From contig OZ223209.1 of the NCBI GenBank assembly GCA_965140415.1, positions 5,056,001 to 5,120,000 of the forward strand: a stretch of 64,000 nt of DNA, read 5' to 3'. This document shows positions 20,646-36,422 of the stretch, piece by piece. Below the pieces are notes generated by a model, which saw nothing but the letters and a program-made list of their open reading frames with translations, had not been told where the DNA came from and made no database searches. Within the stretch, counting starts at the first letter, position 1. Each line of letters starts with the position of its first letter. Source of the DNA: Myxococcota bacterium. GTDB taxonomy: Bacteria > Myxococcota_A > SURF-8. A program made the translations under genes and the position numbers.

Positions 20646-21154
20646 ACGCCATCCAGGTAGTTGCGGATTTCAGCAGCGACATAAGCGATGTAATCGGGCG
20701 GATGATGGACGTGCTCCCAGATTTTGTCGCAGTTTTTCCATTTTATCTGCTTGCCGTCTTTGATCGCGGAGAGCACCAGGGATTTGGTGAAAAGCTGATA
20801 ATCCTGGGTGAAATGCTTGTTTTCTTCCCGATCCGTATTGACGACCTTCCATTGCAGCTTTCCGCTTTTCAACTCCTCGGCAAAGGTTTCCTTGATCGTC
20901 TGATCTGCCAGTTGCTCCATGGTCGTGCAGGTCTTGCAGCGGTAATCCCCGTGGAAATAATACACGATTACCGTGTCGGGAATCGTAACGACTGCCGGCT
21001 TTGCAGCTTTGGTATTGCTCGTATCGGCGGCAGCCTTCTGCGGCGTTGCAGATGGCACCGGCTCCGGCGTGGCTTGCGTCTCCGCCTGACTGCAAGCCGT
21101 CGTAAACGATAACAAGACAAAACACAGAATAAAAAGTGTGAAAAGATACTTCAT
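20642..21154 (-). CDS. ArsF-like exported thioredoxin-fold lipoprotein
   Basis: Lipobox TTAC; VYYFHG..RCKTC motif. Confidence 0.78.
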   Translation of the reverse strand: MKYLFTLFILCFVLLSFTTACSQAETQATPEPVPSATPQKAAADTSNTKAAKPAVVTIPDTVIVYYFHGDYRCKTCTTMEQLADQTIKETFAEELKSGKLQWKVVNTDREENKHFTQDYQLFTKSLVLSAIKDGKQIKWKNCDKIWEHVHHPPDYIAYVAAEIRNYLDGV

Positions 21155-21167
21155 GGTGTTTCCTTGT

Positions 21168-21404
21168 TTATACCAGCAGTTTTTTCAACGCATCCATCGG
21201 CGGCAACTTGCCCACACTTTTAACTTCGCCGTCCACCACCAATCCCGGCGTCATCATCACGCCCTTGGCCACGATCTGCTGAATGTCCTCCACCTTGACG
21301 ACTTCCGCCTCGATACCCATTTCCCCCACCGCCTGCTGCGTCAGTTGAAACAGCTTCTTGCATTTGGCGCAACCCGTTCCAAGAATCTCGATCTTTTTCA
21401 TCAT
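21168..21404 (-). CDS. Small redox-active disulfide protein (MTH895/ArsE-like thioredoxin family)
   Basis: IEILGTGCAKC, GVMMTPGLVVDG.V. Confidence 0.9.
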   Translation of the reverse strand: MMKKIEILGTGCAKCKKLFQLTQQAVGEMGIEAEVVKVEDIQQIVAKGVMMTPGLVVDGEVKSVGKLPPMDALKKLLV

Positions 21405-21412
21405 TCATCCTT

Positions 21413-22633
21413 CTAGTTTGCTTTATTCGTTTGAAAAGGAGTCCGTAAGAAGGCAAAGGCCAGCACGATGGCAGCCAATGCGGCGCAGGCCGCACCCAGT
21501 CCCAATGCAACGGAAGCACCGTACTGTTGCCACAGAAAACCCGCCATGACCGAAGCAGGCAAGGCCGACACGCCGATGGCGAGATGGTAAGCGCCGAAAC
21601 CTTTCCCGCGCTGCCTCGACTTCACCAGATCCGCCGTCAGCGCTTTTTCCGGGCCTTCGGTCAGGCCGTAGTACAGTCCGTACAAAACAAACAGCGGCCA
21701 GACCTGCCAGGCTGCCTGTGAAGACGCAAACAGGAAATACACCACGGCGTACAACATCCAACCGGCAAGAATCACCGGCACACGTCCGAAGCGGTCGGAC
21801 AGCCCCCCGCAGGGAGTAGCCCAGATGGTTTTACTCAGATGCAGCACAACCCACATAATCGGAGCTAGATAATCCGGCACGCCGAGTTCGTGAGCGTGCA
21901 GGATCAGAAAGACATCGGTCGAATTTCCAAGCGTAAAGAGAATCATGGCCACAAGAAACACACCGAACTGTCGCCGCTCCTGCTTGGTGGTTTCCGGCTG
22001 CGAAGATTCGTCAGCTTCTTTACTCACTTCACGCTTCGGTACCACTTCCTTTACAGCAAACACGACAAACGCGATGGTTAGCAGGCTGGGTACCGCCGCC
22101 AGCAGGAAAATCGTTCGCAGGTCCAGTTGCAAACCGTACAGCAGCGCAAAAGCGATCAGCGGACCGACCACCGCCCCGGCGTGATCCATCGCCCGATGAA
22201 AACCGAAGGCGCGTCCGCGCATATCGGGCCGAACCGACTCCGCCAGCAGCACGTCTCTGGGTGCGGTGCGAAGCCCTTTGCCAACGCGATCCAGACCGCG
22301 CAGAGTAACCAGATGCCAGCCTGCCGTAATCAAACCAAAAAGCGGACGAGTAGCCGAAGCCAGCACGTAACCGGCCACCGCCAGCGGCTTCCGGCGTTGC
22401 AGGCGGTCGGACCACCAGCCGGAGAAATACTTCAACAATGCCGCAACCGCTTCCGCGATTCCTTCCATCACACCTAGAATCTGCGGACCCAGACCAAGCG
22501 TCTGCGTGACGAACAACGGCAGCAGCGGTACGATCATCTCGCTGGCACTGTCGTTGAAAAAACTGACTAGACCTAATGCCTTGACCTGGCGCGGCAGTTT
22601 CTCTTTGCTGTTCTTTTTCGCATTCAATGGCAA
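21413..22633 (-). CDS. MFS transporter
   Basis: About 12 TM segments; D..SEM..PLLP, DRVGKGLRTAPRD, GRAFGFHRAMD..GA..GP. Confidence 0.9.
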   Translation of the reverse strand: MPLNAKKNSKEKLPRQVKALGLVSFFNDSASEMIVPLLPLFVTQTLGLGPQILGVMEGIAEAVAALLKYFSGWWSDRLQRRKPLAVAGYVLASATRPLFGLITAGWHLVTLRGLDRVGKGLRTAPRDVLLAESVRPDMRGRAFGFHRAMDHAGAVVGPLIAFALLYGLQLDLRTIFLLAAVPSLLTIAFVVFAVKEVVPKREVSKEADESSQPETTKQERRQFGVFLVAMILFTLGNSTDVFLILHAHELGVPDYLAPIMWVVLHLSKTIWATPCGGLSDRFGRVPVILAGWMLYAVVYFLFASSQAAWQVWPLFVLYGLYYGLTEGPEKALTADLVKSRQRGKGFGAYHLAIGVSALPASVMAGFLWQQYGASVALGLGAACAALAAIVLAFAFLRTPFQTNKAN

Positions 22634-22636
22634 CTC

Positions 22637-23806
22637 CTAGCTAAATAGCGCACCGTAAAGCAACCCGCTAAGCGTAGACATCACAATAACCAACAACACG
22701 TAAACCACGGTCTTCTTCGTTCCCAATACACTGCGAATGACCAGCATGTTCGGCAATGACAGTGCCGGACCGGCCAGCAATAACGCCAGCGCCGGACCTT
22801 TACCCATTCCCGCGCCGAGTAAACCTTCCAAGATCGGGACTTCCGTTAAGGTGGCGAAATACATGAACGCCCCCACCACCGAGGCAAACAGGTTCGCCCA
22901 CAATGAATTGCCACCCACCAGGCCGCTGACCCACTGGGAAGGGATGACGCCCTCGTGTCCCGGTCGGCCCAGTAGAAAACCGGCGGCCAGCACACCAATG
23001 AACAGCAGAGGCAGCACCATCTTGGCGTATTCCCAGGAGGAAGCGCCCCATTCGCTCAGTTCGTCACGCGTGAACCAGCGCCACAACACACCCGCCAGCA
23101 TCAGCAGCAATATCCCGCTGATCCACCATTTGGCGGCATAAATCAATCCCCAGATTCCGGCATCACCGGCCTGTGGTTGTCCCCAGTTGGCGAACACGAG
23201 AATTCCGACCATCAGGAAGAAATATAGCAGATCCTGTGCGCCGCTGCGCGCGGTCTGCATGGCGGGCATTTCCGGTAACGACGCCGCTTTTTCCGCTTCT
23301 TCCTTGCGGAAAATAAAGGCCATGCACAAACCGATCACGACCGAGAAGACGATTGCGCCGATGGCTCGCGCCAGCCCCAGTTCCGTTCCCAGAACACGCG
23401 CCGTTAAAATGATCGCCAGCACGTTGATGGCCGGGCCGCTGTATAGAAAGGCCGTCGCCGGTCCAAGCCCCGCGCCACGCGCGTAGATTCCGGCAAACAA
23501 TGGCAGCACCGTGCAGGAACAAACCGCCAAAATCGTTCCGCTGCTGGCGGCAACACCGTAAGCCACCGTGCGCTTGGCCTGTGCACCCAGATATTTCATT
23601 ACCGAAGCCTGCGAAACGAAACTGGCAATGGCTCCGGCGATGAAGAAAGCCGGAATCAGGCAAAGAATCACATGTTCGCGTGCATACCATTTCGATAACG
23701 CCAGCGCCTCATGCAAGGCACCTAAAAATCGGGCGTTTTCGACCGGCAGAAACCAGAGCGCCGCAAACACGGCGAGAAAGAGTAGAAAGAGTTTGCGTTC
23801 CGACAT
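22637..23806 (-). CDS. ArsP-like (DUF318) permease
   Basis: HVILCLIPAFFIAG, LAVCSCTVLPLF, FLYSGPAINV, YFATLTEVP, LLAGPALSLP. Confidence 0.88.
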   Translation of the reverse strand: MSERKLFLLFLAVFAALWFLPVENARFLGALHEALALSKWYAREHVILCLIPAFFIAGAIASFVSQASVMKYLGAQAKRTVAYGVAASSGTILAVCSCTVLPLFAGIYARGAGLGPATAFLYSGPAINVLAIILTARVLGTELGLARAIGAIVFSVVIGLCMAFIFRKEEAEKAASLPEMPAMQTARSGAQDLLYFFLMVGILVFANWGQPQAGDAGIWGLIYAAKWWISGILLLMLAGVLWRWFTRDELSEWGASSWEYAKMVLPLLFIGVLAAGFLLGRPGHEGVIPSQWVSGLVGGNSLWANLFASVVGAFMYFATLTEVPILEGLLGAGMGKGPALALLLAGPALSLPNMLVIRSVLGTKKTVVYVLLVIVMSTLSGLLYGALFS

Positions 23807-23821
23807 TAGGATATCTCCACC

Positions 23822-24661
23822 CTAGCCTTTACGACCTACGAACTTGGCACTGTAGATCTTTCCTTCCAACGCTTGCGCCACCCCCGCCACCATTTCCTTG
23901 GGGATTGCGCCTCCCCCGCAGCAGGCAAAGGCATCACGCGGAATTTCGGACTGCGCCAGGCTTGTGAGCTGCGACAAGTCGTACATGAAGCGCTCGGCTA
24001 CTTCGACCTGCTGCAACCCCGCGTTTTTCAATCCTTCCAGATAGTGTTGCTCGCTGATGGCCCCGCCGATACAGGCGCTGTACAATGTCATGCTTTCGCG
24101 CACCCAACCGGGCAAATCTTCCACCACGATATCCGAAATGCTGATGCGTCCACCCGGTTTGAGTACACGCGCGATTTCGGCAAAGACTTTGTCTTTTTCC
24201 GGTGACAGGTTGATCACACAGTTGGAAATGACCCAATCGACGGAATTGTCCTCGACCGGAAGCTGTTCGATGATGCCCTTACGGATTTCAACCTGCCCGG
24301 CACCGGCCTTCTCGATGTTGGCACGAGCATGAGCGATCATTTCGTCGGTCATATCCACACCGATCACTTTTCCGGCTGATCCCACTTTTTCCGCCGCAAT
24401 CAACAAATCGATACCAGCACCACTACCCAGATCCAGCACCGTCTGACCCGGTTCAACCTCACTGAAAGCCAATGGATTACCACAACCGAAACTGTTTTGC
24501 ACCGCATCCTGGGGCAAGACATTCAATTGGTTCTTATCGTAGCCCGCAGTCTGCACCGACACGCCTTGAGGCAAGCCTGGACCGCAGCAGCCACAACCTT
24601 GTGTAACGCTATTGCCGTAAAAGCCGGAAACCTGTTTGCGAATATCGTCTTGCTCATTCAT
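23822..24661 (-). CDS. arsM: Arsenite S-adenosylmethionine methyltransferase
   Basis: SFGCGNP, VLDLGSGAGID, ISNCVINL, CIGGA, plus N- and C-terminal CC pairs; GGAGG RBS before ATG 24661. Confidence 0.88.
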   Translation of the reverse strand: MNEQDDIRKQVSGFYGNSVTQGCGCCGPGLPQGVSVQTAGYDKNQLNVLPQDAVQNSFGCGNPLAFSEVEPGQTVLDLGSGAGIDLLIAAEKVGSAGKVIGVDMTDEMIAHARANIEKAGAGQVEIRKGIIEQLPVEDNSVDWVISNCVINLSPEKDKVFAEIARVLKPGGRISISDIVVEDLPGWVRESMTLYSACIGGAISEQHYLEGLKNAGLQQVEVAERFMYDLSQLTSLAQSEIPRDAFACCGGGAIPKEMVAGVAQALEGKIYSAKFVGRKG

Positions 24662-24728
24662 AGCTGGATTCCTCCGATACATGCAACGTTGTCTTTTAAC
24701 TTGGTTTAGCTAACCTAAAACAAGCTTC

Positions 24729-25040
24729 CTATTCCTTACGCAATTGCAGCACCCGGTTGGTGCAACTGAACATATCCAGCACGCAAGGCGTCAGCAGGCG
24801 ATAGCGCACCGTGTTGCCATCTTTGCGGTTGTCCACGATTCCCGCCGCCAGCAATACGGATAAATGCTTGGAAACCGTCGATATATCCAATTCGACCGCA
24901 GCGGCCAGATCGCCGACGGAGCACTCGCATTCTTTGAGCCAGTCAACGATCATCAGCCGGGCTTCATTGGCCAGCGCTTTATGAATGCGCGCCTGCTGTT
25001 TGTAGTCTCCGCGCGATTTTTTTGGTGTACAGCATGTCAT
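24729..25040 (-). CDS. arsR: ArsR/SmtB family transcriptional regulator
   Basis: KALA...RL.IV, C.V.DL, STVSKHL..L..AGIV; N-terminal CC and C-terminal PC..F.C. Confidence 0.9.
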   Translation of the reverse strand: MTCCTPKKSRGDYKQQARIHKALANEARLMIVDWLKECECSVGDLAAAVELDISTVSKHLSVLLAAGIVDNRKDGNTVRYRLLTPCVLDMFSCTNRVLQLRKE

Positions 25041-25046
25041 GTCGCA

Positions 25047-25075
25047 AGTATTTGGCTATTTGGCCAATTAGTCAA
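25047..25075 (-). promoter_or_regulatory. arsR promoter with overlapping inverted-repeat operator; probably leaderless
   Basis: TTGACT-17 nt-AATACT ending 6 nt before the ATG; TTGGC-N6-GCCAA palindrome (25052-25067) in the spacer. Confidence 0.6.
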
Positions 25076-25385
25076 GTAAAAAAAGAATCGGTTTTGGTTT
25101 TTTTCTGACATTGCATGTGTGTTTCAGGTTGCCTTTCAATTTGTTTTCTGATAATACATATAGGTATACTTGGTTGACTGAAATCCAGCTCCTGCTCAAA
25201 CTCCTGCGATATTTACAATTCTTTCCTGATATCAAGCCCTTCCTGCCGATCTGATTCGCGTTCGAAATTTGCCGGATCAACTACAGCTTTTGCGAATCCC
25301 GATTTTCGATCCTCAACCAAGTCGATTGTCTCAGGTTCTTTCGCTTGCTGATTTCATGCAAGCTCACCACATTCAGGTGCAGCAA

Positions 25386-27194
25386 ATGAACAAATTGGAT
25401 AGCAAACTGGAAAGCTGGATTGCGGAACGATTGTTCGACACCGTACCGATGAGCATCGCCGTAATCGATCGCGACTTCAACCTGGTTGCCGCCAACAGCG
25501 CTTTCGAAGACCTTTTCGGGCATTGGCGCGGCAAGAAGTGCCACGCAGTGTATAAAAGCCGCGATTCGGTCTGCCCGCACTGCAAAGGCTCCCTTGCCTT
25601 CCAGGATAAGCAGCCGCAAGTCAATGAGGAAGTCGGCTATAATAAGGACGGCAAACCGACCCGCTACATCAAATACACCATCCCCATCTTCGACGAACAG
25701 GACGAAGTACCGTTTCTAGTTGAAATGTCTACGGATATCACCGAGGCGGACCAGACGAGGCGTGAACTGCAACTGCTGTTCGATCAGGTTCCATGCAACA
25801 TCACGGTGCTTGACCGGAATTTGAAAGTCGTGCGCACCAACAACAAGATTCATCAGACTTTCGGTGAGGCTATTGGCAAGTTCTGCTATCAGGTCTTTAA
25901 AAATCGTGAAACCGAATGCGAGGATTGCCCCGCGCGGCGCTCCTTTGAAGATGGCGGCATCCACAGTGCACAATCCATGGTCTGTAATGCGCGCGGGCAG
26001 CAAATGCACTTGCACGTCACCAGCGCGCCACTGGAAAGTGTGGACCGGCAGGTGGACCAAGTTGTTGAAATGGCTGTGGATATTACCGAAAATGTGGCGC
26101 TTCAGGATGAATTGCGCATTGCCCATTCCTTTTTGGAAACCTTAATCGCCGCCTCCATCGACGGAGTCATCGCCGTAGATGAGAACATGAACGTAACCGT
26201 TTTCAATGCCGCAGCCAGAAAGCTCTGCCAGGTGGCGGACAATCATTTCGTCACTTCCGCCGAGTTGGAACGCATGTTTCCCGAAGGCTTTCTAAATCAA
26301 GTCCATGCCGGAGTCGGACACGTTTATCTGCCTGATACCGAAATCCGTACCATGCGTGGCGAGGCGCTACCGGTTCGGTTGACGGGAGTTCAACTGCTGG
26401 ATAATGAACGTTACCTGGGAATGGCCTTCAGCATTCAGAACCTGACGCGCATCAAACAGTTGGAAAAAGCCAACCTGGACGCCGAACGACTGGCGGCGGT
26501 GGGACAAACGGTGGCGGGCCTGGCCCACGGCGTCAAGAACCTGATCGCCGGGCTGGAAGGCGGCATGTATATGCTCAATACCGGAATCAAGCTGGGGCAG
26601 TCGGAACGCATCGTGCAGGGCTGGGATATTCTGGATCGGAACATCGGGCGCATCGGGATGTTCGTAAAAGCCTTTCTGGGGTTCTCAAAAGGGCGCGAAA
26701 TCCAGGTGGAAAGCTGCGATCCGGCGTCAATTGCGGAAGAAGTCGTCCAGCTCTACTCGGCCAACGCCGAACGCGCCGGGATCGAATTGAACTACAAGGT
26801 GATCGGACAGGTTAAACCGGCCAATCTGGATAAAGAGGGCATTCACGAATGCCTGACAAATCTGGTCGGTAACGCCATCGACGCCTGTCAGATGAGCGAC
26901 AAAAGCGGCTGCCATGTAACGATACAGGTGCGAGATCGCGGCAATACGTTGATTTACGAGGTCACCGACGACGGCATCGGAATGGATTACGAAGTCAAAC
27001 GCAAAGTCTTCACCACGTTCTTTACCAGCAAGGGACTAGGCGGAACCGGCTTGGGACTATTGACCACGCGTAAAATCGTTCAGGAGCATGGCGGACGGAT
27101 CGATGTCGAAAGCGAGTTGAATCAGGGAACGACGTTTCGTATCGTGCTGCGGCGCGAACGTCTGCCCAAACCGATAAAACAGTCACCGCCGTAA
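25386..27194 (+). CDS. Cytoplasmic multi-PAS sensor histidine kinase
   Basis: Three PAS-like domains, two with Cys clusters; H-box AGLAHGVKN; N-box NLVGNAIDA; DDGIGM, FFTSK, GTGLGL; start uncertain (25356 or 25386). Confidence 0.92.
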   Translation: MNKLDSKLESWIAERLFDTVPMSIAVIDRDFNLVAANSAFEDLFGHWRGKKCHAVYKSRDSVCPHCKGSLAFQDKQPQVNEEVGYNKDGKPTRYIKYTIPIFDEQDEVPFLVEMSTDITEADQTRRELQLLFDQVPCNITVLDRNLKVVRTNNKIHQTFGEAIGKFCYQVFKNRETECEDCPARRSFEDGGIHSAQSMVCNARGQQMHLHVTSAPLESVDRQVDQVVEMAVDITENVALQDELRIAHSFLETLIAASIDGVIAVDENMNVTVFNAAARKLCQVADNHFVTSAELERMFPEGFLNQVHAGVGHVYLPDTEIRTMRGEALPVRLTGVQLLDNERYLGMAFSIQNLTRIKQLEKANLDAERLAAVGQTVAGLAHGVKNLIAGLEGGMYMLNTGIKLGQSERIVQGWDILDRNIGRIGMFVKAFLGFSKGREIQVESCDPASIAEEVVQLYSANAERAGIELNYKVIGQVKPANLDKEGIHECLTNLVGNAIDACQMSDKSGCHVTIQVRDRGNTLIYEVTDDGIGMDYEVKRKVFTTFFTSKGLGGTGLGLLTTRKIVQEHGGRIDVESELNQGTTFRIVLRRERLPKPIKQSPP

Positions 27195-27213
27195 CGCCAA
27201 GGAGTCGCATACC

Positions 27214-28959
27214 ATGGCGCGCGACAAGCAATGGATGTTATTTCTGGGGGCCGGGAGCAACAGCCTGCATCTGATGGCACAGGGGTTGGCGCAGACACAG
27301 CGATTAAATGGCCTGCAAGTCATCAGCGCCGCCATGACGCCCTCGGAACTGCATCCCATGGCCAACGAGGTGATGACACAGCTAGGGATCGAGTTGCAGC
27401 ATTTTCCCTTATTGACCCCTTTGGATATCGAGCTGTTCCATTTCGATCTTGTCATCACCCTGGGCGACTTCGACCGCTCCTGCCAACCGAATCTTCCCGG
27501 CATGCCGCCCCATATTCATTGGAATATTCCCGAGCCAAACGCCGATGACCCAGCCCAGCGCCTGCTTCAATTCCAGCAGGCACGAGATCGTTTGAAGGAT
27601 AAAATCTCTGCCTTGTACGATCAGGGCTTTTTCGAGGCCTTGTTTACCACGCGACGAAACCTGGATCTGATTCTCGACAACATGATCGAGGGCGTCATGG
27701 CTCACACCACCAATCGCCGCATTTTCTATTTCAACCAGGCCGCCGAACGCATCACCGGGCATCGTCGCGAAGATCTGTTAGGCAAAGACTGCCACGATGT
27801 GTTTCCGGGTCGTTTTTGCGGCGGGCAGTGCGACTTCTGCGAAGGCGGGCAAACAGAGCGGGGAAAAGTAAACCGTAAAGAAGTGATGTTCACCTGTCCA
27901 AACGGAGAACGACGCTTATTGGAAATGGCGACCATGCCGCTTTCCGGCCTGGGAGGAATGAATGTCGGCGCGTTGATTTCCTTTAAAGACAACACCGAAC
28001 TGGCGGCACTGAAACTTCGGCTGAAGCATCATCATTCGCTGGGAGGTCTGATCGGCAAAGACCCGAAAATGCTGGCGCTTTTCGATCAGATCCGCGAAGT
28101 CGGAAAGGTCAACGTCCCGGTATTGATCGAAGGCGAAAGCGGCACAGGAAAAGAACTGGTAGCCAACGCCATCCACGATATCGGAGAGCGGGCAAACAAA
28201 CCTTTTGTGGCCATCAACTGCGGCGCCCTACCGGAAGGCATCTTGGAAAGCGAATTGTTCGGGCACGTGCGCGGAGCGTTTTCCGGCGCGGTGCAGAATA
28301 AAAAAGGTCGCTTTGAACTAGCCGACGGCGGCACGATCTTTCTGGATGAAGTCGGGGAACTGTCACCCGCCATGCAGGTAAAACTGCTTCGGGTGTTGCA
28401 GGAGCAACGATTCGAGCGCGTCGGTGGAGAACATTCGATTTCCGTGGACGTGCGCGTGATCAGCGCCACCAATCAGAAACTGCGCCGCATGATGGAAACC
28501 CGTCGCTTCCGGCGCGACTTGTTTTATCGGCTTTGCGTTGTGCCGATTACGCTGCCGCCGCTACGCGAGCGCCGCTTGGACATCCCGATGCTCGTCGAAC
28601 ATTTTTTGGAGCGCATCGCGACCGAAACCGAGCGCAGCATCCTGCGACCTTCCACCGAAGCGCTGGACCTGTTGACTCAATATCCCTGGCCTGGAAACGT
28701 GCGCGAATTACGCAACTCGATTGAATACGCCTATGTCAAGTGCCATGGCGACACCATCCACCCGGAGCATCTGCCACCGGAAATCACGCAGCAACATCAA
28801 CGCCCGGTCGTCAAGCCCGGTCCTGCTTTGAAATATGACAAGGAAGAGATCATACTGGCCCTGGCGCAGGCCGAAGGCAACAAGCAACAGGCAGCCAAGC
28901 GACTCGGCATCGGTCGCGCAACCCTGTATCGCTACTTGAAAACCTTTCGCCTTAGCTGA
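27214..28959 (+). CDS. sigma54-dependent activator (bEBP): ArsC/LMW-PTP-like domain + PAS + AAA+ + Fis HTH
   Basis: GESGTGKE, ESELFGH..GAFSGA, FLDEV, RRDLFYRL, WPGNVREL, AAKRLGIGRATLYR; N-terminus resembles thioredoxin-type ArsC. Confidence 0.93.
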   Translation: MARDKQWMLFLGAGSNSLHLMAQGLAQTQRLNGLQVISAAMTPSELHPMANEVMTQLGIELQHFPLLTPLDIELFHFDLVITLGDFDRSCQPNLPGMPPHIHWNIPEPNADDPAQRLLQFQQARDRLKDKISALYDQGFFEALFTTRRNLDLILDNMIEGVMAHTTNRRIFYFNQAAERITGHRREDLLGKDCHDVFPGRFCGGQCDFCEGGQTERGKVNRKEVMFTCPNGERRLLEMATMPLSGLGGMNVGALISFKDNTELAALKLRLKHHHSLGGLIGKDPKMLALFDQIREVGKVNVPVLIEGESGTGKELVANAIHDIGERANKPFVAINCGALPEGILESELFGHVRGAFSGAVQNKKGRFELADGGTIFLDEVGELSPAMQVKLLRVLQEQRFERVGGEHSISVDVRVISATNQKLRRMMETRRFRRDLFYRLCVVPITLPPLRERRLDIPMLVEHFLERIATETERSILRPSTEALDLLTQYPWPGNVRELRNSIEYAYVKCHGDTIHPEHLPPEITQQHQRPVVKPGPALKYDKEEIILALAQAEGNKQQAAKRLGIGRATLYRYLKTFRLS

Positions 28960-28982
28960 TTTCATCCGATTCCCAACCCGAC

Positions 28983-29138
28983 TGTCTCAAGTCTCACATT
29001 CTCTGCAATTGAAGCAACATGAGACAGTTTGAGACACTACGCCAAATGCGAAAATCCTCCTGATTTAATAAGTCTGTCACTTGCAGATATTTATAGAACA
29101 ACTTGAGACAGCCGTGCTCCATCTTGAGAATCCGAGAC
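28983..29138. promoter_or_regulatory. Putative bEBP upstream activating sequences (TGTCTCA/TGAGACA repeats)
   Basis: TGTCTCA 28983, GTCTCA 28991, TGAGACA 29020, 29030 and 29104, GAGAC 29134; about 80-230 bp upstream of a sigma54 site. Confidence 0.65.
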
Positions 29139-29214
29139 GCTTTTATTGTCAGCGTTCTGCACACAAATATGAGTTTTCAACCTGTTTCCAGCTACATACG
29201 TAATTTATAAAAAC

Positions 29215-29230
29215 TGGTACGGCACTTGCT
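29215..29230 (+). promoter_or_regulatory. sigma54 (-24/-12) promoter
   Basis: TGGTACG-GCAC-TTGCT upstream of the operon starting at 29269. Confidence 0.8.
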
Positions 29231-29268
29231 TTTACAAAGCCTGTCTCAGACGCAAAGGAATTGCCATC

Positions 29269-29523
29269 ATGTTTGCGGACCCCATAAATGAAGCTCTGAT
29301 GGATGTGCTCCGGCTCTGTCGGCAGATGCTGCAACTGGCCGAGCGTGGGGATGCGCTTCGCCGCGATGCGGGCTGCGGCGTGGTTTTTGGAACGCTGCGC
29401 GACGATGCCTACAAGGTGCGGCGGCTGGCGGAACGGGAGCTTGAAAAGCACGGTCATGCGAACCGGTCCATGGAACCGGCTCTTAACGATAAGCCCAACG
29501 ACACTAGAAAAAAGGAAGAGTAG
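29269..29523 (+). CDS. Small helical hypothetical protein with a D.GCG motif
   Basis: AAGGA RBS; first gene after the sigma54 promoter; GD..R.DAGCGVVFGTLRD.AY. Confidence 0.75.
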   Translation: MFADPINEALMDVLRLCRQMLQLAERGDALRRDAGCGVVFGTLRDDAYKVRRLAERELEKHGHANRSMEPALNDKPNDTRKKEE

Positions 29524-29528
29524 CAGCC

Positions 29529-29909
29529 ATGAGCGAAAAGAAAAAAGTACTTCTGGTGGATGACGAACAGGATCTGCTGACCTTTTTATCCGCCCTGTTC
29601 ACCGATCACGGCTATCAGCCGGTCACGGCGCTGGATGGGTTGGAGTGCGTGCAAAAGGCGCGCAGTGAAAAACCAGATTTGATCACCCTGGATATGACGA
29701 TGCCCAAGCAATCCGGAGTCAAGACCTTTCGCGAATTGAAAGACGACCCGGAACTCAAAGACATTCCGGTGATCGTCATCACGGCTATCGGCGAGAACAT
29801 GGGCGACTTTTTAAAGGGTCGCCGCCAGATTCCGCCGCCGGAAGGCTTCATGTCCAAACCGATCGATCAGAAGGAACTGATGGAAATGGCCAAGCAGTTG
29901 CTGGGCTGA
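29529..29909 (+). CDS. Single-domain response regulator (DivK/DVU0259-like)
   Basis: VLLVDDE, KPDLITLDMTMP, IPVIVIT, SKP. Confidence 0.92.
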   Translation: MSEKKKVLLVDDEQDLLTFLSALFTDHGYQPVTALDGLECVQKARSEKPDLITLDMTMPKQSGVKTFRELKDDPELKDIPVIVITAIGENMGDFLKGRRQIPPPEGFMSKPIDQKELMEMAKQLLG

Positions 29910-29964
29910 AACCACCGGATTTACATGCGCTTAGACCGCGCATGGTTGAAACAGGAGAAACCGC

Positions 29965-30927
29965 ATGTCCGTTCTCGTATACGTCATTGCTTACCTTGCC
30001 ATTGCCGTCTTCGGTATCGCCGTCGTCGTGCGCTTCGTCGATTACCTGAAAAAGCCCATTCACGTTCGCTGGGAACTGTATCCCGTGGCCCACGAAGGCA
30101 AACGCGCTGAATACGGCGGCGGCTATCTGGAAGAAGTGGACTGGTGGCAGAAGAAACGCGAAGTCTCGCACATCGGCGAGTTGAAAGTCATGATTCCCGA
30201 GATTCTGCTTTTAAAAGCGGTCTGGGAACACAATCGCCCGCTGTGGTTCGTGACCTATCCCTTTCACCTGGGACTGTATCTACTGATGGCCTTTATCGGC
30301 CTGTTGGGACTGGGTGCGATTTTGCAACTGGCCGGTGTATCGCTGGGTTCGGGAGCGGCTCCCGGCACGGTCATCACCAATCTGGCCGGACTGCTCGGAC
30401 CGCTGGGGTTCATTATCGCACTCATCGGCGCACTGGGACTGTTTTTCAGACGCCTGACCAATGAAGACATGCGAGCGTATTCCGGTTTCGGTCACTTCTT
30501 CAACCTGGCTGCCTTTATTCTGGCGACGGGACTGGCTATCGCCGTGTGGTTGTCGGTAGAGAACTACGCCGCACAGATGATGGGCTTTATGGCCGGGCTG
30601 TTAACCTTTGGCACGGCGGCAAGCGCAAAAGCTGTTGGAACTCAGCCGTTGTTCGCCGCGCACCTGATTGTCGCCTTTGTACTGATGGCTTACATCCCGC
30701 TTACGCACATGTCGCATTTCTTCATGAAATACTTCCTTTACCACGATATCCGCTGGGGAGATGAGCCCAATATCAATACGCCTCATACCGATGCCAAAAT
30801 TCAAACCGTGTTGAATTACCCGGTGTCCTGGGCGGCTGGCCATATCGCCGGACATGGTCGCACCACCTGGGCGGAGGTCGCCACGTTCAATCCTGCACGC
30901 GATGTCGAAGAAGGGAAGGAGAAATAA
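29965..30927 (+). CDS. DsrM/HdrE/NarI-like membrane b-type cytochrome
   Basis: Multi-TM; RWELYPV.HE motif; candidate heme-ligating His in PFHLG, AHLIV and THMSHF. Confidence 0.8.
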   Translation: MSVLVYVIAYLAIAVFGIAVVVRFVDYLKKPIHVRWELYPVAHEGKRAEYGGGYLEEVDWWQKKREVSHIGELKVMIPEILLLKAVWEHNRPLWFVTYPFHLGLYLLMAFIGLLGLGAILQLAGVSLGSGAAPGTVITNLAGLLGPLGFIIALIGALGLFFRRLTNEDMRAYSGFGHFFNLAAFILATGLAIAVWLSVENYAAQMMGFMAGLLTFGTAASAKAVGTQPLFAAHLIVAFVLMAYIPLTHMSHFFMKYFLYHDIRWGDEPNINTPHTDAKIQTVLNYPVSWAAGHIAGHGRTTWAEVATFNPARDVEEGKEK

Positions 30928-30928
30928 C

Positions 30929-32542
30929 ATGACCTCCAAATCCAGAAAAGCCAAGTTGAGCGATGTAAGCAAAGGCAATGAACCCTTAACCCACGTCGCC
31001 GTAGAAGATCTGATGCCTTTACCGGGCATGGAGGCGGAAAAAGACTGGACGCCGCTGAAAGACAACGTCAAACAGGACTATGCCTGTTTGCTGGACGACA
31101 CCTCCATTCTTCCGATTCCGCGTCCCAAAACGCCGGAAGAAGAGCAGGAAATGGTCCGGAAGTTTCTTTCCGGCATGGAAAAGCTGTTCACCAAGGAAAA
31201 CAACTGGACCTTCCTGGCTCAGCTAACCACAACGATGGAGCACTGCGCCAAATGCAACACCTGCTCGGATGCCTGTCATCTGTATGAGGCCAGCGGCAAA
31301 AACGAAGTCTACCGCCCGACCTTCCGCACGGAGGTTTTCCGGCGCATCTACAAAAAGTACGTCAAGAAAGAAACGATGGCAGACTGGCGCAACGGTCCCA
31401 TCGATCTGACCTGGCAGGCCGTGGCACGATTGGGTGAAATGGCCTACCGCTGCAACCTATGCCGTCGTTGTGCGCAAACCTGCCCCATCGGGGCGGACAA
31501 CGGCCTGGTGGCGCGCGAAATCCGCAAGATCTTCAGCCAGGAAATGGGCATTCAAACGCCGGAACTGCACGAAAAAGGCTCGATGCTGCAATTGAAAACC
31601 GGCTCCTCCACCAACATGAACTCTCTTGTCGTAAAGGACAACATGGAGTTCATCGACGAGGATATCAATGAAATCAGCGGCTTCAAGTACGAAACGCCTT
31701 GGGATGTGGAGGGCGCGGACATCCTGCTGATCCACAACGCCGGTGAAATTCTGGCCTGGCCGGAGAACGTCGGCGCGTTCGGCATCATTTTCGAAGCGGC
31801 AGGCTTGTCCTGGACGTTAAGCAGCGACTTAGCCGCCTACGACAGCATCAACTACGGTGTTTTCTACGACGACGTTCAGTTCGCCCGCACGGCGATCCTA
31901 CAGGCGCAGGCAGCGGAGAAACTGGGAGTAAAGAAAATCGTGCTCGGCGAATGCGGCCACGCACACAAGGCATTGACCGTCATTGCCGACCGCGTGCTGC
32001 CTGAAGGCTTGAAAATCCCGCGCGAAAGCTGCTTCCCGCTATTGCGTGACATCGTTTTTAACGAGGGCGGAAAGTACAATGATATCAAGTTCGATCCGTC
32101 CCGCAACGACTTCCCGGTGACCGTACACGACCCCTGCAACCTGACGCGCCTGATGGGCATCATCAAGCCGCAACGCGACGTCTTGCATAAACTCTGTCCA
32201 CAGTTCAGAGAGATGACGCCGCACGGGGCGCACAACTACTGTTGTGGCGGCGGCAGCGGCTTTGCCATCATGGGGCGCAACAACATTCACGACTGGCGCT
32301 TCAAGGTTGCCGGTCGCAAGAAACTGGAACAGATTCTGAATGCCTTCTCCGATTGTCGTGGTCCTGAAACTAAGAAGTACGTATGTGCTCCATGCTCAAA
32401 CTGCAAAGGACAGATTCGCGATATCTTCGAAAATTACGGACTGTTCGAAAAGGAAAGTCTGATTTACGCCGGTTTGGTCGAACTCATCGTCAATGCGATG
32501 GTCGATGTCAATCCGGGCTTTATCAAATGGGAGCAGATGTAG
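30929..32542 (+). CDS. DsrK/HdrD-like Fe-S protein (two ferredoxin motifs plus CCG domain)
   Basis: CAKCNTCSDAC, CNLCRRCAQTC, GECGH, HDPCN, CCGGG, PCSNC; AAGGAG RBS before ATG 30929. Confidence 0.88.
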   Translation: MTSKSRKAKLSDVSKGNEPLTHVAVEDLMPLPGMEAEKDWTPLKDNVKQDYACLLDDTSILPIPRPKTPEEEQEMVRKFLSGMEKLFTKENNWTFLAQLTTTMEHCAKCNTCSDACHLYEASGKNEVYRPTFRTEVFRRIYKKYVKKETMADWRNGPIDLTWQAVARLGEMAYRCNLCRRCAQTCPIGADNGLVAREIRKIFSQEMGIQTPELHEKGSMLQLKTGSSTNMNSLVVKDNMEFIDEDINEISGFKYETPWDVEGADILLIHNAGEILAWPENVGAFGIIFEAAGLSWTLSSDLAAYDSINYGVFYDDVQFARTAILQAQAAEKLGVKKIVLGECGHAHKALTVIADRVLPEGLKIPRESCFPLLRDIVFNEGGKYNDIKFDPSRNDFPVTVHDPCNLTRLMGIIKPQRDVLHKLCPQFREMTPHGAHNYCCGGGSGFAIMGRNNIHDWRFKVAGRKKLEQILNAFSDCRGPETKKYVCAPCSNCKGQIRDIFENYGLFEKESLIYAGLVELIVNAMVDVNPGFIKWEQM

Positions 32543-32617
32543 CTGCCCTTCGAGGCATCGAAGTGCAGCTTGACGCTCCCCGAAGCAGCGAAAACCTTTG
32601 GATACAAGGAGGCAGTG

Positions 32618-33136
32618 ATGGCAACGGCGGCGGAAAAAAACATTCTGGTGGTCGAGGATGAGCCGGATGTGCAACTGGTGCTTTCCACGGCCTTACAGGA
32701 CGCGGGATTCTCCGTTCGCACGGCGAGTAACGGTCACGAGGCGTACAATCAGGTCAAGTTTGAAGTTCCCGATCTGATTACGCTGGATCTGGTGATGCCC
32801 GGCATGAGTGGTGCGTTGTTTTACAGCAAACTGCGCAAAAATACCAATTGGGGCAACATCCCCGTGATCGTCATTTCTGCTCACGCAAAAGATGAGTTCG
32901 GGCGCAAGGATTTCGAAGACATGATGCGCGGACGCGAATTCGAGCCACCGCAGGCGTTTCTGGAAAAACCGGTGGATACCGCCGACCTGATTCGGAAAGT
33001 GGCCGAGCTGTTGGAAGTGGAAGCCACCGAAATTCTGGCCGGACCCGAAGCGCAAACACGCGAAGAAATCCTCTCGAAACTCAATGGAGTGGATCTGGAT
33101 ACGCTCAAAAAGGTGCGCGAAGTACTAAACCGCTGA
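32618..33136 (+). CDS. Response regulator receiver protein with a short C-terminal extension
   Basis: ILVVEDE, PDLITLDLVMP, IPVIVISA, EKP; AGGAGG RBS. Confidence 0.9.
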   Translation: MATAAEKNILVVEDEPDVQLVLSTALQDAGFSVRTASNGHEAYNQVKFEVPDLITLDLVMPGMSGALFYSKLRKNTNWGNIPVIVISAHAKDEFGRKDFEDMMRGREFEPPQAFLEKPVDTADLIRKVAELLEVEATEILAGPEAQTREEILSKLNGVDLDTLKKVREVLNR

Positions 33137-33199
33137 CTTGTTTAATACTTCCCTGCCCGATCCGTGACGGCAAGAACCGACCTGGGAGTGATTGCCCAT

Positions 33200-33231
33200 G
33201 CCTGCGCCCCCGTATTTTCGGAGGCGCAGGC
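33200..33231 (+). terminator. GC-rich hairpin after the operon (possible terminator)
   Basis: GCCTGCGCC...GGCGCAGGC; no clear U-tract. Confidence 0.4.
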
Positions 33232-33491
33232 GCCGTCTATTCTTCAAGTAACGTTTTACAGGTCTATAAAGAATCCTTACATTTCTTCGAGTAACCCCGC
33301 ATTTTTCCTTGCCCCATAACCAGTGCTACGAGTAGAATCCTCTCTGGCTTGGTGTCAACACTGCAACGATGTAAAATGAAAACGATTCTTTTCTATATTT
33401 GCCGCCGGGCCGATCATCTTCCGAATGCCAATGGGAAAAATGATTTGCCGCCTCGTTTTTCTCTCTCCTTCTTTATTTGAAAGGATCACCT

Positions 33492-36422
33492 ATGTTTTCA
33501 CATCGCCTACCTCTGATCGTTTGCGCACTGACATTGTTCTGGTTTTTAGCGCTGCCCGGTTGCAGCAGTGACAGCGATCCGGGAATCCTGTTTTCTGGAG
33601 ACATTGAACAGGCGGACACGTCCGTGGATGGCGATACGACCGATGCGGAAGCGGAACTTCCTGTAGAAGACGGTGACACTCAAGAAGGCGAGCAAGCTGC
33701 CGACGGCGACAGCACCGACGGGGATAGCGTCGTCGATGGAGATCTTCCCATTGATGGCGACACGGCAGATGGAGACGCGAGCGACGGCGACCTGATCTGG
33801 ATCGACGGTGATTTCTGGCCGGACGGCGATGATGTCGATGGAGATGATACCGATGGCGATGAAGAATTACAACGCCCCCGCCGTGGCTGGGTAGAGGAAC
33901 TGCCGGCCGAAAGCGCAAGTTGTGAAGATGCCTGCAAAACCATGGCGGATTGCGGTCACTTCGAAGGTCGTCACAGCGCAATCGATGACGAGGCGGATTG
34001 TTTACAGCGTTGCCAAAACGCAGATAGCCTTCCTTTCGGCGGTCCGACCTATTCAGACGACTATTTCAAGCGTTGCGCCTCGCAGACCGACTGCAACGAC
34101 AACCAGTATTGCAGCGACTGGCTGGCCGATCCGCGTGTGGATTATTCCTGCGAAGTCGTTTGTCTGTGCATGGAAGGCTATATGAACGAAACCGGAATAC
34201 GCACCGATTTCAGCATGTTAAACGACACTGCGTATACTCCGCAGGGCTTGACTCCAGCGACCGACGTGCAGGTCTTCGACAACCGCTCTTCGTTGGATAT
34301 CGAAGCGGCGCTGGACGCCTTCGACGTTCCCGCTCGCCTGTACGCCAAAGGGCATTTCGTTCAGATCCGCGCCACGCAACTGGCCGATCCGCAAGGCATA
34401 TTGGCCCTAGCCCAGAACATGGAACCGCTGCCGACCTTCCGCGACGCCAACGGACGCATTCTGGCTGCCACCGACCGCCTGATCGTGACCCCCAAGACCG
34501 GACGTCATACGTTACAAGCTAGCAGCTTTGCTGCACTGGGTCTGCAAAAAGCCAAGCAACTGAGCTGGTCGCCCTCCGGTATGTGGATCGCTCAGGCCGA
34601 CTCTCCGCGCGAAGCACTGCGCATCGCCGCCCAGCTTAACCAACGCAACGACATCACGGCGGAAATCGACTACGTCCGGTTCTACAAACGGCACTATATT
34701 CCCAACGATCCGCTTTTCGATTACCAGTGGCATCTGCGCAATACCGGCATGACGCAGCAGGTCGCCCACAATGATGCACGCGTGTGGGAAGCCTGGGATC
34801 TGGAAAAAGGCGAGCAGAGCGTGGTATTGGGCATCAACGACGATGGCTGCGACCTGAACCACCCGGATCTCGTCGGAAATATGGAACCGGCACTGGACTT
34901 CCCCGATGACTGGGAAGCGCAAGCACTGGCGGGAAGTTTTGGCTGGCACGGTTCGAGCGTAGCCGGTGTGACTGCCGCAAAGGGTGACAACTCTATAGGT
35001 GTCAGCGGTGTCTGTCCCAATTGCCGCCTGCGTTGCAGTAACGCCTTTGAATACCCTTCGGAAGACGATCCCATCGGCTCCAGCGACAGCATCACCGCCA
35101 GCAAATTCGTGTTACAGGCCGACGCAGGAACGGCAGCGGTCAACAATAGCTGGGGCTACGACATGGGCGATCCGCTCGTCTGGGGTGACGCCCCTGCTTT
35201 GATTCCCTTGGCCGGTGTCATTCGCGACGCCTTCGCCTATGCTGAAAGCGACGGCCGAGATGGCAAAGGCATGGTGATTCTTTTCTCCGCCGGAAATGAG
35301 AATACGGATCTGGCCGGAAATGAAATGCTGAATGTCGACACCATTGTGACCGTCGGCGCAACCGACGATCAGGGCTTGAAGAGCTACTATTCCAGCTTCG
35401 GCGCGACCGTGGATATAACCGCTCCCAGTAACGGCGGCATTACGGGTATCGTCACCACCGCCGCACGCGGCAGCGGCGATAACGGCCAGGACGACTACAC
35501 CTTCTCCTTCGGCGGCACCAGTTCCAGTTGTCCCTTCACCACCGGCGTGGTCGGTTTGATCCTTTCCGCCAACCCCGATTTGACCGCAGCCCAGGTACGC
35601 GACATTCTGAAAAAGAGCGCGCGCAAAATCGATCCGGCTCATGGCAAGTGGGATGAAAACGGCCACAGCAAGTATTACGGCTACGGCATGGTGGATGCCT
35701 ATGTCGCCGTCAGCATGGCACTGGATGCACAAAGCTGCACCGAACGTGAAGACTGCCTCTCCCCCACCGACCGCTGCACGAGCATTGGCCGGGACGGCGC
35801 CTGCGAGCGGGCGGCCTGTGATGAATGCACCGACAACAGCCAGTGCGCCTCCGGCGCGTGTCAGGCGTTACCGGAATTGCAGAAACAGCTTTGCGTGGAA
35901 AGCATGACCGAACAGGGAGCCTGCCCGGCAGAGCATTACGAAGTCAACGGCTATTGCCTGCCGCAACGCGGTGCTTGCGGTTCCTGCGACAGCACGGAAG
36001 ACGAAGTCTGCAACGGTCGCGACGACGACTGCAACGGCGTCGTCGATGACGGCGGCGTATGTGGCGATTACGAGCAGTTATGCCACGACGACCGCGATTG
36101 CCCCAGCGGCACGATCTGTCTGGCCTTGCAATGCTATCCCACCTGTACGAACGATGCGGATTGCGCTTCGGATCAATATGAAATGGACTGCCTGTATCCC
36201 TCCGGTCGTTTCGGTGGCGAGTTGCCAAGCTCTCAGGTGTGTATGCGTGTCGGCTTCGGGATGGAATGCGATGCCATGTGCGGCTTGATGCTTTCGGATA
36301 ACGACGATCAGAACATGCTGGATATCCAAGCCTGCATCGAGGATCAGGTCATCAACAACCAGGTCAACTGCATGGGATTGTTCCAGCAATGCATGTCCCT
36401 GCTCGGTGGGCGCAGCGAGTAG
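33492..36422 (+). CDS. S8 (subtilisin-like) serine protease lipoprotein with a DGD linker and Cys-rich domains
   Basis: Lipobox LPGC; catalytic triad motifs INDDG, HGSSVAG, GTSSSCP; AGNE; C-terminal CNGRDDDCNGVVDD. Confidence 0.9.
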   Translation: MFSHRLPLIVCALTLFWFLALPGCSSDSDPGILFSGDIEQADTSVDGDTTDAEAELPVEDGDTQEGEQAADGDSTDGDSVVDGDLPIDGDTADGDASDGDLIWIDGDFWPDGDDVDGDDTDGDEELQRPRRGWVEELPAESASCEDACKTMADCGHFEGRHSAIDDEADCLQRCQNADSLPFGGPTYSDDYFKRCASQTDCNDNQYCSDWLADPRVDYSCEVVCLCMEGYMNETGIRTDFSMLNDTAYTPQGLTPATDVQVFDNRSSLDIEAALDAFDVPARLYAKGHFVQIRATQLADPQGILALAQNMEPLPTFRDANGRILAATDRLIVTPKTGRHTLQASSFAALGLQKAKQLSWSPSGMWIAQADSPREALRIAAQLNQRNDITAEIDYVRFYKRHYIPNDPLFDYQWHLRNTGMTQQVAHNDARVWEAWDLEKGEQSVVLGINDDGCDLNHPDLVGNMEPALDFPDDWEAQALAGSFGWHGSSVAGVTAAKGDNSIGVSGVCPNCRLRCSNAFEYPSEDDPIGSSDSITASKFVLQADAGTAAVNNSWGYDMGDPLVWGDAPALIPLAGVIRDAFAYAESDGRDGKGMVILFSAGNENTDLAGNEMLNVDTIVTVGATDDQGLKSYYSSFGATVDITAPSNGGITGIVTTAARGSGDNGQDDYTFSFGGTSSSCPFTTGVVGLILSANPDLTAAQVRDILKKSARKIDPAHGKWDENGHSKYYGYGMVDAYVAVSMALDAQSCTEREDCLSPTDRCTSIGRDGACERAACDECTDNSQCASGACQALPELQKQLCVESMTEQGACPAEHYEVNGYCLPQRGACGSCDSTEDEVCNGRDDDCNGVVDDGGVCGDYEQLCHDDRDCPSGTICLALQCYPTCTNDADCASDQYEMDCLYPSGRFGGELPSSQVCMRVGFGMECDAMCGLMLSDNDDQNMLDIQACIEDQVINNQVNCMGLFQQCMSLLGGRSE

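Follow-up and report, generated by a model that had tools for sequence, protein, structure and literature searches.

This study concerns a sigma54-dependent transcription activator encoded in a 64,000-nucleotide stretch of a Myxococcota genome (contig OZ223209.1; this whole stretch is the window, and its numbering is used throughout). The activator joins an N-terminal domain related to arsenate reductase (ArsC) and the low molecular weight phosphatases (LMWP) to a PAS domain, an AAA+ ATPase domain and a Fis-type helix-turn-helix. A histidine kinase gene precedes it, and it is followed by a small open reading frame (ORF), a response regulator (RR), DsrM-like and DsrK-like proteins and a second RR. 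An earlier reading made from the letters alone (the sequence-only reading) had singled out the activator for a catalytically dead ArsC fold and a cysteine-bearing PAS domain, and had suggested an oxyanion, thiol or protein-interaction sensor wired to a redox sensor. We propose that the activator is probably a redox-sensing one-component bacterial enhancer-binding protein (bEBP) acting on the operon of a DsrMK paralogue, with the ArsC fold as a non-catalytic input domain. The role given to the ArsC-like domain is one that we infer. The features are listed in Table 1.

Table 1. Features of the activator gene, its upstream kinase and the downstream operon.
Feature	Position in window	Strand	Basis
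Sigma54 enhancer-binding protein, 581 aa (ArsC-like, PAS, AAA+, HTH_8)	27214..28959	+	ORF, Pfam
ArsC/LMWP-fold pseudo-enzyme domain, residues 1-137, N-terminal	27214..27624	+	sequence/profile homology, model
Degenerate P-loop GAGSNSLH, residues 12-19, replacing CX5R(S/T)	27247..27270	+	pI258 ArsC alignment
Former redox loop, residues 84-103: G84 (was Cys82), C90, P92-x-LPGMPPH-x-HW	27463..27522	+	invariant columns
PAS domain, residues 150-264	27661..28005	+	Pfam PAS_9 E 1.3e-10, PAS E 2.8e-10
Cys motif C193-x8-C202-x3-C206-x2-C209, D195 at C+2	27790..27840	+	translation
Sigma54-interaction AAA+ domain, residues 279-445	28048..28548	+	PF00158 E 3.2e-70, 235.6 bits
Fis-type HTH_8 DNA-binding domain, residues 542-576	28837..28941	+	PF02954 E 1.8e-10, 40.8 bits
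Histidine kinase, three PAS domains, two with C-x10-C-x2-C	25386..27194	+	Pfam
Four heptamers TGAGACA/TGTCTCA, candidate upstream activating sequences	28983, 29020, 29030, 29104 (28983..29110)	.	motif scan
Predicted sigma54-type promoter TGGTACGGCACTTGCT (GG-N10-GC)	29215..29230	+	sigma54 consensus score
Fifth heptamer TGTCTCA, just 3' of -12 element	29242..29248	.	motif scan
Small conserved ORF, 84 aa	29269..29523	+	core MLELAD-GD--R-DAGCG-VFG-LRD-AYK-R-LAE-E
Single-domain response regulator RR1	29529..29909	+	PF00072 E 2.9e-20; syntenic
DsrM/NarI-like membrane cytochrome b	29965..30927	+	PF02665 E 4.9e-11; weak DsrM/NarI NCBIfam matches
DsrK/HdrD-like Fe-S protein with CCG domain	30929..32542	+	NF045796 DsrK E 1.1e-93, 314 bits
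Response regulator RR2, short extensions	32570..33136	+	PF00072 E 1.3e-22; syntenic

The activator ATG is preceded at 8 nt by a strong ribosome-binding site, AAGGAG. Besides the domains in Table 1, Pfam assigned an AAA lid, and the translation contains Walker A (GESGTGKE) and Walker B (IFLDEVGE) motifs together with a GAFSGA loop, in which Ser takes the place of the Thr in GAFTGA. The genome also encodes rpoN (DNA-binding domain, 223.6 bits). Because the Pfam domains, the Walker and GAFSGA motifs and an rpoN gene are all present, the activator, as judged from its translation, is an intact sigma54 bEBP without a receiver (REC) domain.

Two sets of relatives were examined. A search with residues 1-145 retrieved 43 clusters of ~580 aa with the same architecture, and 38 of these include the N-terminus. 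Genome searches and a metagenome scan using an alignment of the N-terminal region provided 15 related loci (5 genomes and 10 metagenome contigs), which make up 16 loci with the window and overlap partially with the 43 clusters.

The Pfam LMWPc family (PF01451) scored 16.2 bits (E 0.012) on residues 1-145, under the cut-off of 23.2, and precomputed annotation places PF01451 in 0/43 family members. NCBIfam TIGR02691 (arsC_pI258_fam) matched with E 2.5e-12 and 47.2 bits, far under its cut-off of 174.3. A phmmer search of PDB sequences gave 15 matches, every one of them an arsenate reductase or LMWP-family protein, led by S. aureus pI258 ArsC (1rxe, E 1.6e-8, residues 4-131). A profile built from the activator family only matched B. 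subtilis ArsC over its full length (E 2.7e-16). Arsenate reductases or LMWP-family proteins made up 15/16 of the matches to this profile, and the 16th was the arginine phosphatase YwlE. Alignment of the family with 43 stand-alone ArsC representatives by hhalign gave a probability of 99.96% (E 8.2e-39) over 135 columns.

The ArsC fold is a flavodoxin-like alpha/beta fold. An AlphaFold2 model of the ArsC-like domain (pLDDT 94.6, pTM 0.90) has the strand-helix order expected for it. When the model was submitted to Foldseek, the first 23 matches listed were all arsenate reductases, and the best fold match was B. subtilis ArsC 1jl3_A (TM 0.80/0.84, rmsd 2.4 A). Profile homology and the predicted structure show that the N-terminal domain is genuinely homologous to thioredoxin-coupled ArsC and shares its fold and ancestry. 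The sequence-only reading had recognized an ArsC/LMW-PTP pattern in the ~135 N-terminal residues, which the phmmer, family profile, hhalign and model results bear out, and the LMWPc/ArsC fold match that it had called for was found by both hhalign and Foldseek.

Residues were mapped on a phmmer alignment to pI258 ArsC. Cys10 of pI258 ArsC corresponds to Gly12 of the activator, Arg16 to Leu18, Cys82 to Gly84 and Asp105 to Glu107. The sequence-only reading had correctly named Gly in place of the P-loop Cys, Gly in place of the second Cys and Glu in place of the acid Asp. It was mistaken in giving His as the replacement of the P-loop Arg, which is Leu18; His19 pairs with Ser17 of pI258 ArsC. Since the nucleophile (Cys10), the Arg of the P-loop (Arg16) and Cys82 are all gone, the domain, on this alignment, cannot act as an arsenate reductase or phosphatase. 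A residue that had been overlooked is Cys90, which falls at the Cys89 position in the pI258 alignment; in the hhalign alignment, which has no gaps, it precedes that position by one residue. Cys89 of ArsC is presumably the residue that enters the mixed disulfide with thioredoxin (2ipa complex).

The PAS domain contains four cysteines in the arrangement C193-H-D-V-F-P-G-R-F-C202-G-G-Q-C206-D-F-C209, and these were invariant in 43/43 clusters and 16/16 loci. The CX8CX3C motif noted earlier is present as C193/C202/C206; C209 had been missed, and the full motif is C-x8-C-x3-C-x2-C. In OrpR of Desulfovibrio vulgaris Hildenborough, the residue positions given in PMC8359166 place C52, C61 and C65 in a C-x8-C-x3-C motif with a conserved Asp/Glu at 54, and the three Cys are reported there to be required for redox sensing via a [4Fe-4S]2+ cluster. 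According to the same source the OrpR PAS domain gates activation negatively (PMC8359166). The likeness to OrpR that the sequence-only reading had pointed out therefore stands, as the spacing equals that of C52/C61/C65 and an acidic residue is again found at C+2; the comparison was made by these published positions (PMC8359166) and not by sequence alignment. By analogy with OrpR, we infer that the four PAS Cys of the activator bind a redox-labile [4Fe-4S] cluster.

The PAS Cys might instead bind structural zinc or form disulfides, in which case the domain would be a thiol or zinc sensor, or no redox sensor at all. Four Cys within 17 residues are a common zinc-site pattern, and the partner kinase carries Cys triads of a different kind. 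In the description of OrpR in PMC8359166 only three Cys are conserved. However, the spacing is identical to that of the OrpR cluster ligands, the acidic C+2 included (PMC8359166), and the genome encodes a DsrMKJOP-type DsrK, which fits an anaerobe, a setting where such clusters are stable. We regard a zinc or disulfide site without Fe-S as unlikely.

The catalytic losses of the ArsC-like domain were then compared with its conservation. Position 12 was never Cys (G24/S6/A8 in the 38 clusters with an N-terminus, G7/A4/S5 in the 16 loci) and position 18 was never Arg (L34/V3/F1 and L13/V2/F1, respectively). Position 13 is Glu or Asp in 33/38 family members. Gly84 was found in 43/43 clusters and 16/16 loci, Cys90 in 43/43 clusters and 13/16 loci. 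Position 107 is acidic in all clusters (D37/E6) and is Asp/Glu in 11/16 loci, with other residues in 5. Within the domain, conservation is highest in the former redox loop, G-D-F-D-x-x-C-x-P-x-LPGMPPH-x-HW, where His100 (16/16), His102 (15/16) and Trp103 (16/16) are kept across the loci. One member of the dead family, that of genome G002 (L097/L129), carries Val in place of Cys90 and Arg in place of His102.

Across related loci the ArsC-like domain is 43-51% identical and the PAS plus AAA+ parts are 64-75% identical. The ratio of nonsynonymous to synonymous substitution (dN/dS, Nei-Gojobori) for the domain was 0.105 (G006 vs G009) and 0.066 (L120 vs L121), and for the PAS plus AAA+ parts it was 0.014-0.093; these values are approximate because dS was 0.9-1.3, near saturation. 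No frameshifts or truncations (0) were found in the domain across the 16 loci. Because the losses hold throughout the family and dN/dS is 0.07-0.11, the degenerate state is, by these sequence comparisons, fixed and under purifying selection, and the window does not carry a decaying allele. The claim that the domain is a pseudo-enzyme is thus confirmed, with P-loop degeneration conserved in 38/38 N-terminus clusters and 16/16 loci.

A domain under such selection could still be a vestigial spacer or folding unit, with the PAS domain doing all the sensing. Its catalytic residues are gone, it is the least conserved part of the protein, and some relatives (G215, G236, G121) have lost it altogether. 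This explanation is nevertheless quite unlikely. The dN/dS of the domain is near the values of the other domains, and the reading frame is preserved at every locus. The 12-residue P-x-LPGMPPH-x-HW is invariant or nearly so in the 43 clusters and 16 loci, which exceeds what a spacer needs, and the helix that leads to the PAS domain is conserved too.

Relatives with the same architecture and an intact CX5R do exist: P0083, P0090, P0103, P0061, P0063 and a protein of genome G003, all with an LMWPc domain that Pfam recognizes. CX5R is also intact in several of ten LMWPc-PAS-Sigma54 clusters retrieved via P0090 (such clusters are P0195-P0198, P0206, P0208, P0209 and P0211). The active-site string of the G003 protein is CGTNSCRS ... 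SLC ... C ... DDP. Cys82 and Cys89 are also present in P0090, P0103, P0061, P0063 and the G003 protein, and P0090, P0103 and the G003 protein keep the Asp besides; P0083 has Trp at the Cys89 position. Partly degenerate relatives are G012, G008, G211 and G381, and relatives without the ArsC-like domain, PAS-only EBPs on the same tree, are G215, G236 and G121.

A quick maximum-likelihood tree of 33 rows was built, with SH-aLRT support only; it is unrooted and was drawn with a midpoint root. All dead-family rows (13/13) fell on one branch (SH-aLRT 100, length 0.69), and the relatives with intact CX5R formed branches apart from them. Because the 13 dead rows share one branch, the dead state arose once in the family, as far as this tree tells. 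The sequence-only reading had considered that most homologues might keep CX5R and that this allele might simply be decaying. This test took CX5R proteins to be homologues within one family. The live relatives, whose existence that reading had missed, sit on separate branches, and the dead family is uniformly degenerate.

Genes of the wider ArsC-PAS-EBP group have neighbors with redox or Fe-S functions (multihaem cytochrome, rubrerythrin, ODP, SufBD), and in the neighborhoods examined ars genes were never adjacent. The phylum sample yielded a single ArsC-PAS-EBP with intact CX5R, the G003 protein. It is encoded on a 5.7 kb contig (L116, 459-3800), just 3' of the genes for a multihaem c-type cytochrome and a Fer4 membrane protein.

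Two conserved neighbors had been overlooked by the sequence-only reading, the histidine kinase and the DsrMK-like operon with its predicted sigma54-dependent promoter. The kinase ORF opens at TTG 25269 and its orthologues align from about ATG 25386. The kinase gene is immediately 5' of the activator gene in 13/15 related loci. Its C-x10-C-x2-C triads are conserved in PAS1 (10/10 orthologues) and PAS2 (9/9), as is the H-box AHG[IV]KN (10/10). The triads suggest that the kinase has metal or Fe-S sensing of its own.

The full set of small ORF, RR, DsrM, DsrK and RR is adjacent in 5 related loci (G001, G004, G006 and G009, corresponding to L093-L096, and L124), and the operon is partly visible at the contig ends of L122 and L125. 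The small ORF has six orthologues of 68-84 aa (49-61% identity) and belongs to no Pfam or NCBIfam family; its Cys is absent in L125. It is the first gene after the predicted promoter and might encode a feedback modulator. The DsrK-like protein has a CCG domain (E 7.1e-7) and orthologues that are 76-88% identical. Since its 314 bits lie below the DsrK cut-off of 400 and a true DsrK (DsrMKJOP-type, 733 bits) is encoded elsewhere, at 1.29 Mb in the genome, it is, on these scores, a paralogue of the true DsrK. The phyletic pattern was examined in 61 related genomes. All genomes with the dead activator (6/6) have a DsrK-like orthologue of at least 78% identity, and 53/55 genomes without it have no DsrK-like match at E <= 1e-120, the other 2 having one; the genomes are kin, so this pattern is not an independent statistic.

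The position of the kinase raises the question of whether the pseudo-ArsC domain replaces a receiver, as a docking or phosphotransfer site for the adjacent kinase or for phosphorylated single-domain regulators. The kinase lies directly 5' of the activator in nearly all loci, yet the activator has no REC domain, and acidic residues stand at the strand ends of the ArsC-like domain (E/D13, D85, D87, D104, D/E107). The Asp residues are ancestral, however, because canonical ArsC has them too, and the kinase has obvious partners in the REC-only proteins whose genes lie within the operon or immediately upstream. A sequence-level likeness to receivers was rejected, as hhalign comparison of the domain family with the REC domains of the operon gave a probability of 6.2%. 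We consider a receiver substitute very unlikely, and in the redox-sensing bEBP model the kinase is assigned to the operon's own regulators.

Other genes were noted around these loci. In G006 (L094), inverted pairs of integrase and IS91-like (Y2_Tnp) transposase genes at 178-2952 and 18056-19961 flank the whole module of kinase, activator and DsrMK-like genes; Pfam scores both Y2_Tnp copies identically, and the module may be mobile in this genome. The three loci with downstream sequence but no adjacent operon there have a DUF1571 gene upstream on the opposite strand (L120 4986-6110, L121 729-1907, L123 7786-8919), which adjoins the activator in L123 and lies beyond an RR-kinase pair in L121. 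In the window, a 981-aa subtilase is encoded directly 3' of the operon (33477-36422, + strand); its N-terminal region is long, repetitive and rich in Asp, and its C-terminal repeats are rich in Cys.

Promoters were searched with a 16-mer sigma54 score, which was stricter than, and used in place of, a generic TGGCAC-N5-TTGC scan; the latter, with 2 mismatches, gave 62 sites over the window against 72.8 expected, the chance level. TGGTACGGCACTTGCT was the only site between 20000 and 34000 to score at least 10/12 against the sigma54 consensus. GG-N10-GC sites are found 35-44 nt 5' of the small ORF in the window, G001, G004, G006, G009 and L124. The site at 29215 is thus the predicted sigma54 promoter of the operon that runs from the small ORF to the second RR. 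Sigma70-like sites (8 vs 5.5 expected) and terminator-like sites (15 vs 11.5 expected) were both at chance, and Rfam gave no match in 24900-33600 at E <= 0.1.

The heptamer TGAGACA/TGTCTCA is concentrated at this promoter, with 5/7 of the copies in the window falling within 28983-29248; one TGTCTCA lies at 25327, in the intergenic region between arsR and the kinase. Across loci the heptamers lie near -100 to -120 and near -190 to -240, often as inverted pairs, and an extra heptamer lies at +27/+28 from the promoter GG in 4/6 loci. The 5.98 Mb genome contains 191 heptamers and one cluster of at least 3 in 300 bp, which is the operon promoter with its 5 sites. Likewise, 53 sigma54-like sites in the genome score at least 11, and only the operon promoter has at least 2 heptamers nearby. 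This single genomic cluster points to a small, local regulon.

The ars island lies at 19953-25040 on the - strand, divergent from the kinase and activator genes. In order, it contains arsR, an arsenite methyltransferase gene (arsM; NF008823, 281.7 bits vs cut-off 263) and genes for an ArsP-type permease, a major facilitator superfamily (MFS) transporter, a nitroreductase subunit of the ArsF family (114.7 bits vs cut-off 60) and a DsbD_2 protein. The island is of the organoarsenical type and presumably resembles the arsEFG-type sets for roxarsone/nitarsone detoxification. No arsC is among its genes, in agreement with the sequence-only reading, which had described an ars operon without its own arsC beside the activator. 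The genome's one well-scoring ArsC-like gene (TIGR02691, 138.7 bits, cut-off 174.3) is ~2.1 Mb away; an in-frame TGA in this match was considered as a selenocysteine codon and rejected, being the stop of a 139-aa ORF. The functional weight that had been placed on the ars neighborhood is not borne out: tblastn with the six ars-island proteins gave 0 matches in the 15 related loci.

An oxyanion sensor was among the suggestions of the sequence-only reading. That the dead domain binds an oxyanion such as arsenate or arsenite and thereby links the activator with the ars island is highly improbable: the activator lies 2.2 kb from the divergent arsR-arsM-arsP, its fold descends from an arsenate-binding enzyme and one heptamer (25327) lies between arsR and the kinase, but no related locus has ars genes, no member retains the Arg or Cys of the P-loop, an acidic residue stands at position 13 in 33/38 members, which is unfavorable for anions, the island has its own ArsR, no sigma54-like site of at least 10 was found in 20000-29000, and relatives with an intact ArsC also have no ars neighbors (one neighborhood, G003). 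The arsenic reading is tempting but unsupported.

We return to the redox-sensing bEBP. The activator, with its two stacked sensory domains, would most likely switch on the operon of small ORF, RR, DsrM-like, DsrK-like and RR genes, which appears to encode a paralogous form of DsrMK, the menaquinol-linked disulfide-reductase module. An OrpR-like [4Fe-4S] cluster in the PAS domain would gate the AAA+ ATPase. The pseudo-ArsC domain would act as a non-catalytic input via its conserved loop surface, and would either dock a partner or report a thiol/disulfide state through Cys90. The signal would run along the conserved helix between the ArsC-like and PAS domains; the model places linker helices at H113-136 and H139-144, and the linker is conserved in the alignments. 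The TGAGACA repeats would be the binding sites of the activator, and the Cys-PAS kinase would phosphorylate the two single-domain regulators of the operon.

Several observations weigh against parts of this proposal. The heptamers were assigned to the activator from their position and their co-conservation with it. In L120, L121 and L123, where 3.5-7.7 kb downstream were examined, no DsrMK-like operon adjoins the activator. G002 has its DsrMK pair on a different contig, where small ORF, RRs and heptamer cluster are all absent, and looks like a rewired variant. In place of Cys90, L127 and L128 carry Ser and G002 carries Val. With 3/16 loci lacking Cys90, a thiol switch at this residue cannot be the whole mechanism, and for the same reason the LPGMPPH-x-HW surface must carry the common function. 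The assignment of Fe-S rests on motif spacing, and the four Cys could equally bind Zn. Canonical ArsCs were in the AlphaFold input alignment, which biases the model toward the ArsC fold. Finally, the direction from live to dead was taken from the catalytic ancestry of the fold, the tree being unrooted.

A more specific version of the input is attractive, because a Cys is retained at or next to the position that we take to form the mixed disulfide with thioredoxin. The dead domain may have kept only the thioredoxin-facing loop of its ancestor and work as a 'thiol-relay receiver' via Cys90 and LPGMPPH-x-HW; we hold this to be improbable as it stands. It would form a reversible mixed disulfide or complex at Cys90/LPGMPPH-x-HW with thioredoxin, with the small Cys-bearing protein of the operon or with a disulfide substrate of the DsrK-like enzyme. 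If true, the domain and the Fe-S PAS domain would jointly form a two-input gate of thiol pool and redox potential on a sigma54 activator. This would amount to a novel type of bEBP sensor made from a pseudo-enzyme and would give a first handle on the function of DsrMK paralogues.

Whatever its input, the redox-sensing bEBP proposed here corrects the arsenic reading of the locus. The live, partly degenerate, dead and domain-less versions on one PAS-AAA+ core form a natural series from enzyme to signaling module. The predicted target, a DsrMK paralogue accompanied by a kinase of its own and by two receiver proteins, is an uncharacterized redox module of sulfate reducers, and with a defined activator, promoter and candidate binding motif the induction conditions are testable. 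PAS Fe-S sigma54 activators such as OrpR are already known, and fusions of ArsC to regulators and transporters are common in databases. What is new is that an OrpR-like activator, tied to an uncharacterized DsrMK paralogue, has a conserved pseudo-enzyme as a presumed sensory domain. Known sensory domains of sigma54 activators are few and well catalogued; those listed in the introduction of PMC8359166 are RR, PAS, XylR-N, V4R and GAF, and the list has no ArsC/LMW-phosphatase fold. In full-text searches, no open-access paper or preprint was found that ties an ArsC/LMWP domain to a bEBP. The passages searched in PMC4641369 (the D. vulgaris sigma54 regulome), PMC4045070 (D. alaskensis G20) and PMC12754779 (PexR) mention neither an ArsC-like EBP domain nor a sigma54-controlled DsrMK paralogue.

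Compared with the thioredoxin-coupled ArsCs of pI258 and B. subtilis (PDB 1jf8, 1jl3, 2ipa), the domain is homologous over its full length with the same fold, and it has kept both the DLVxTL and HW strands as well as the C-terminal helix. Unlike them, it is fused to a transcription activator, scores under the NCBIfam and Pfam cut-offs, lacks Cys10, Arg16 and Cys82 and so cannot form the Cys82-Cys89 disulfide relay, and has its loop remodeled to LPGMPPH-x-HW. Other ArsC fusions in databases (ArsR-ArsC, ACR3-ArsC, aquaporin-ArsC, PhoU-ArsC, kinase-ArsC) have an LMWPc domain recognized by Pfam and a mostly arsenic-related partner, whereas in the activator the domain is dead and the partners are redox-related. 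The LMWPc-PAS-Sigma54_activat-HTH_8 proteins with intact CX5R, which databases name only 'sigma 54-interacting transcriptional regulator', share with the activator the four-domain architecture, the linker helix and, mostly, the same Cys-PAS motif. With OrpR, as it is described in PMC8359166, the activator shares the PAS-AAA+-HTH core, the C-x8-C-x3-C spacing, the acidic C+2 and a sulfate-reducer background. Because that source describes the OrpR PAS domain as N-terminal, OrpR is taken to have no ArsC-like domain (PMC8359166). The activator family also has a fourth invariant Cys, vs three conserved Cys in OrpR, and its predicted target is the DsrMK-like operon, whereas that of OrpR is the orp genes (PMC8359166).

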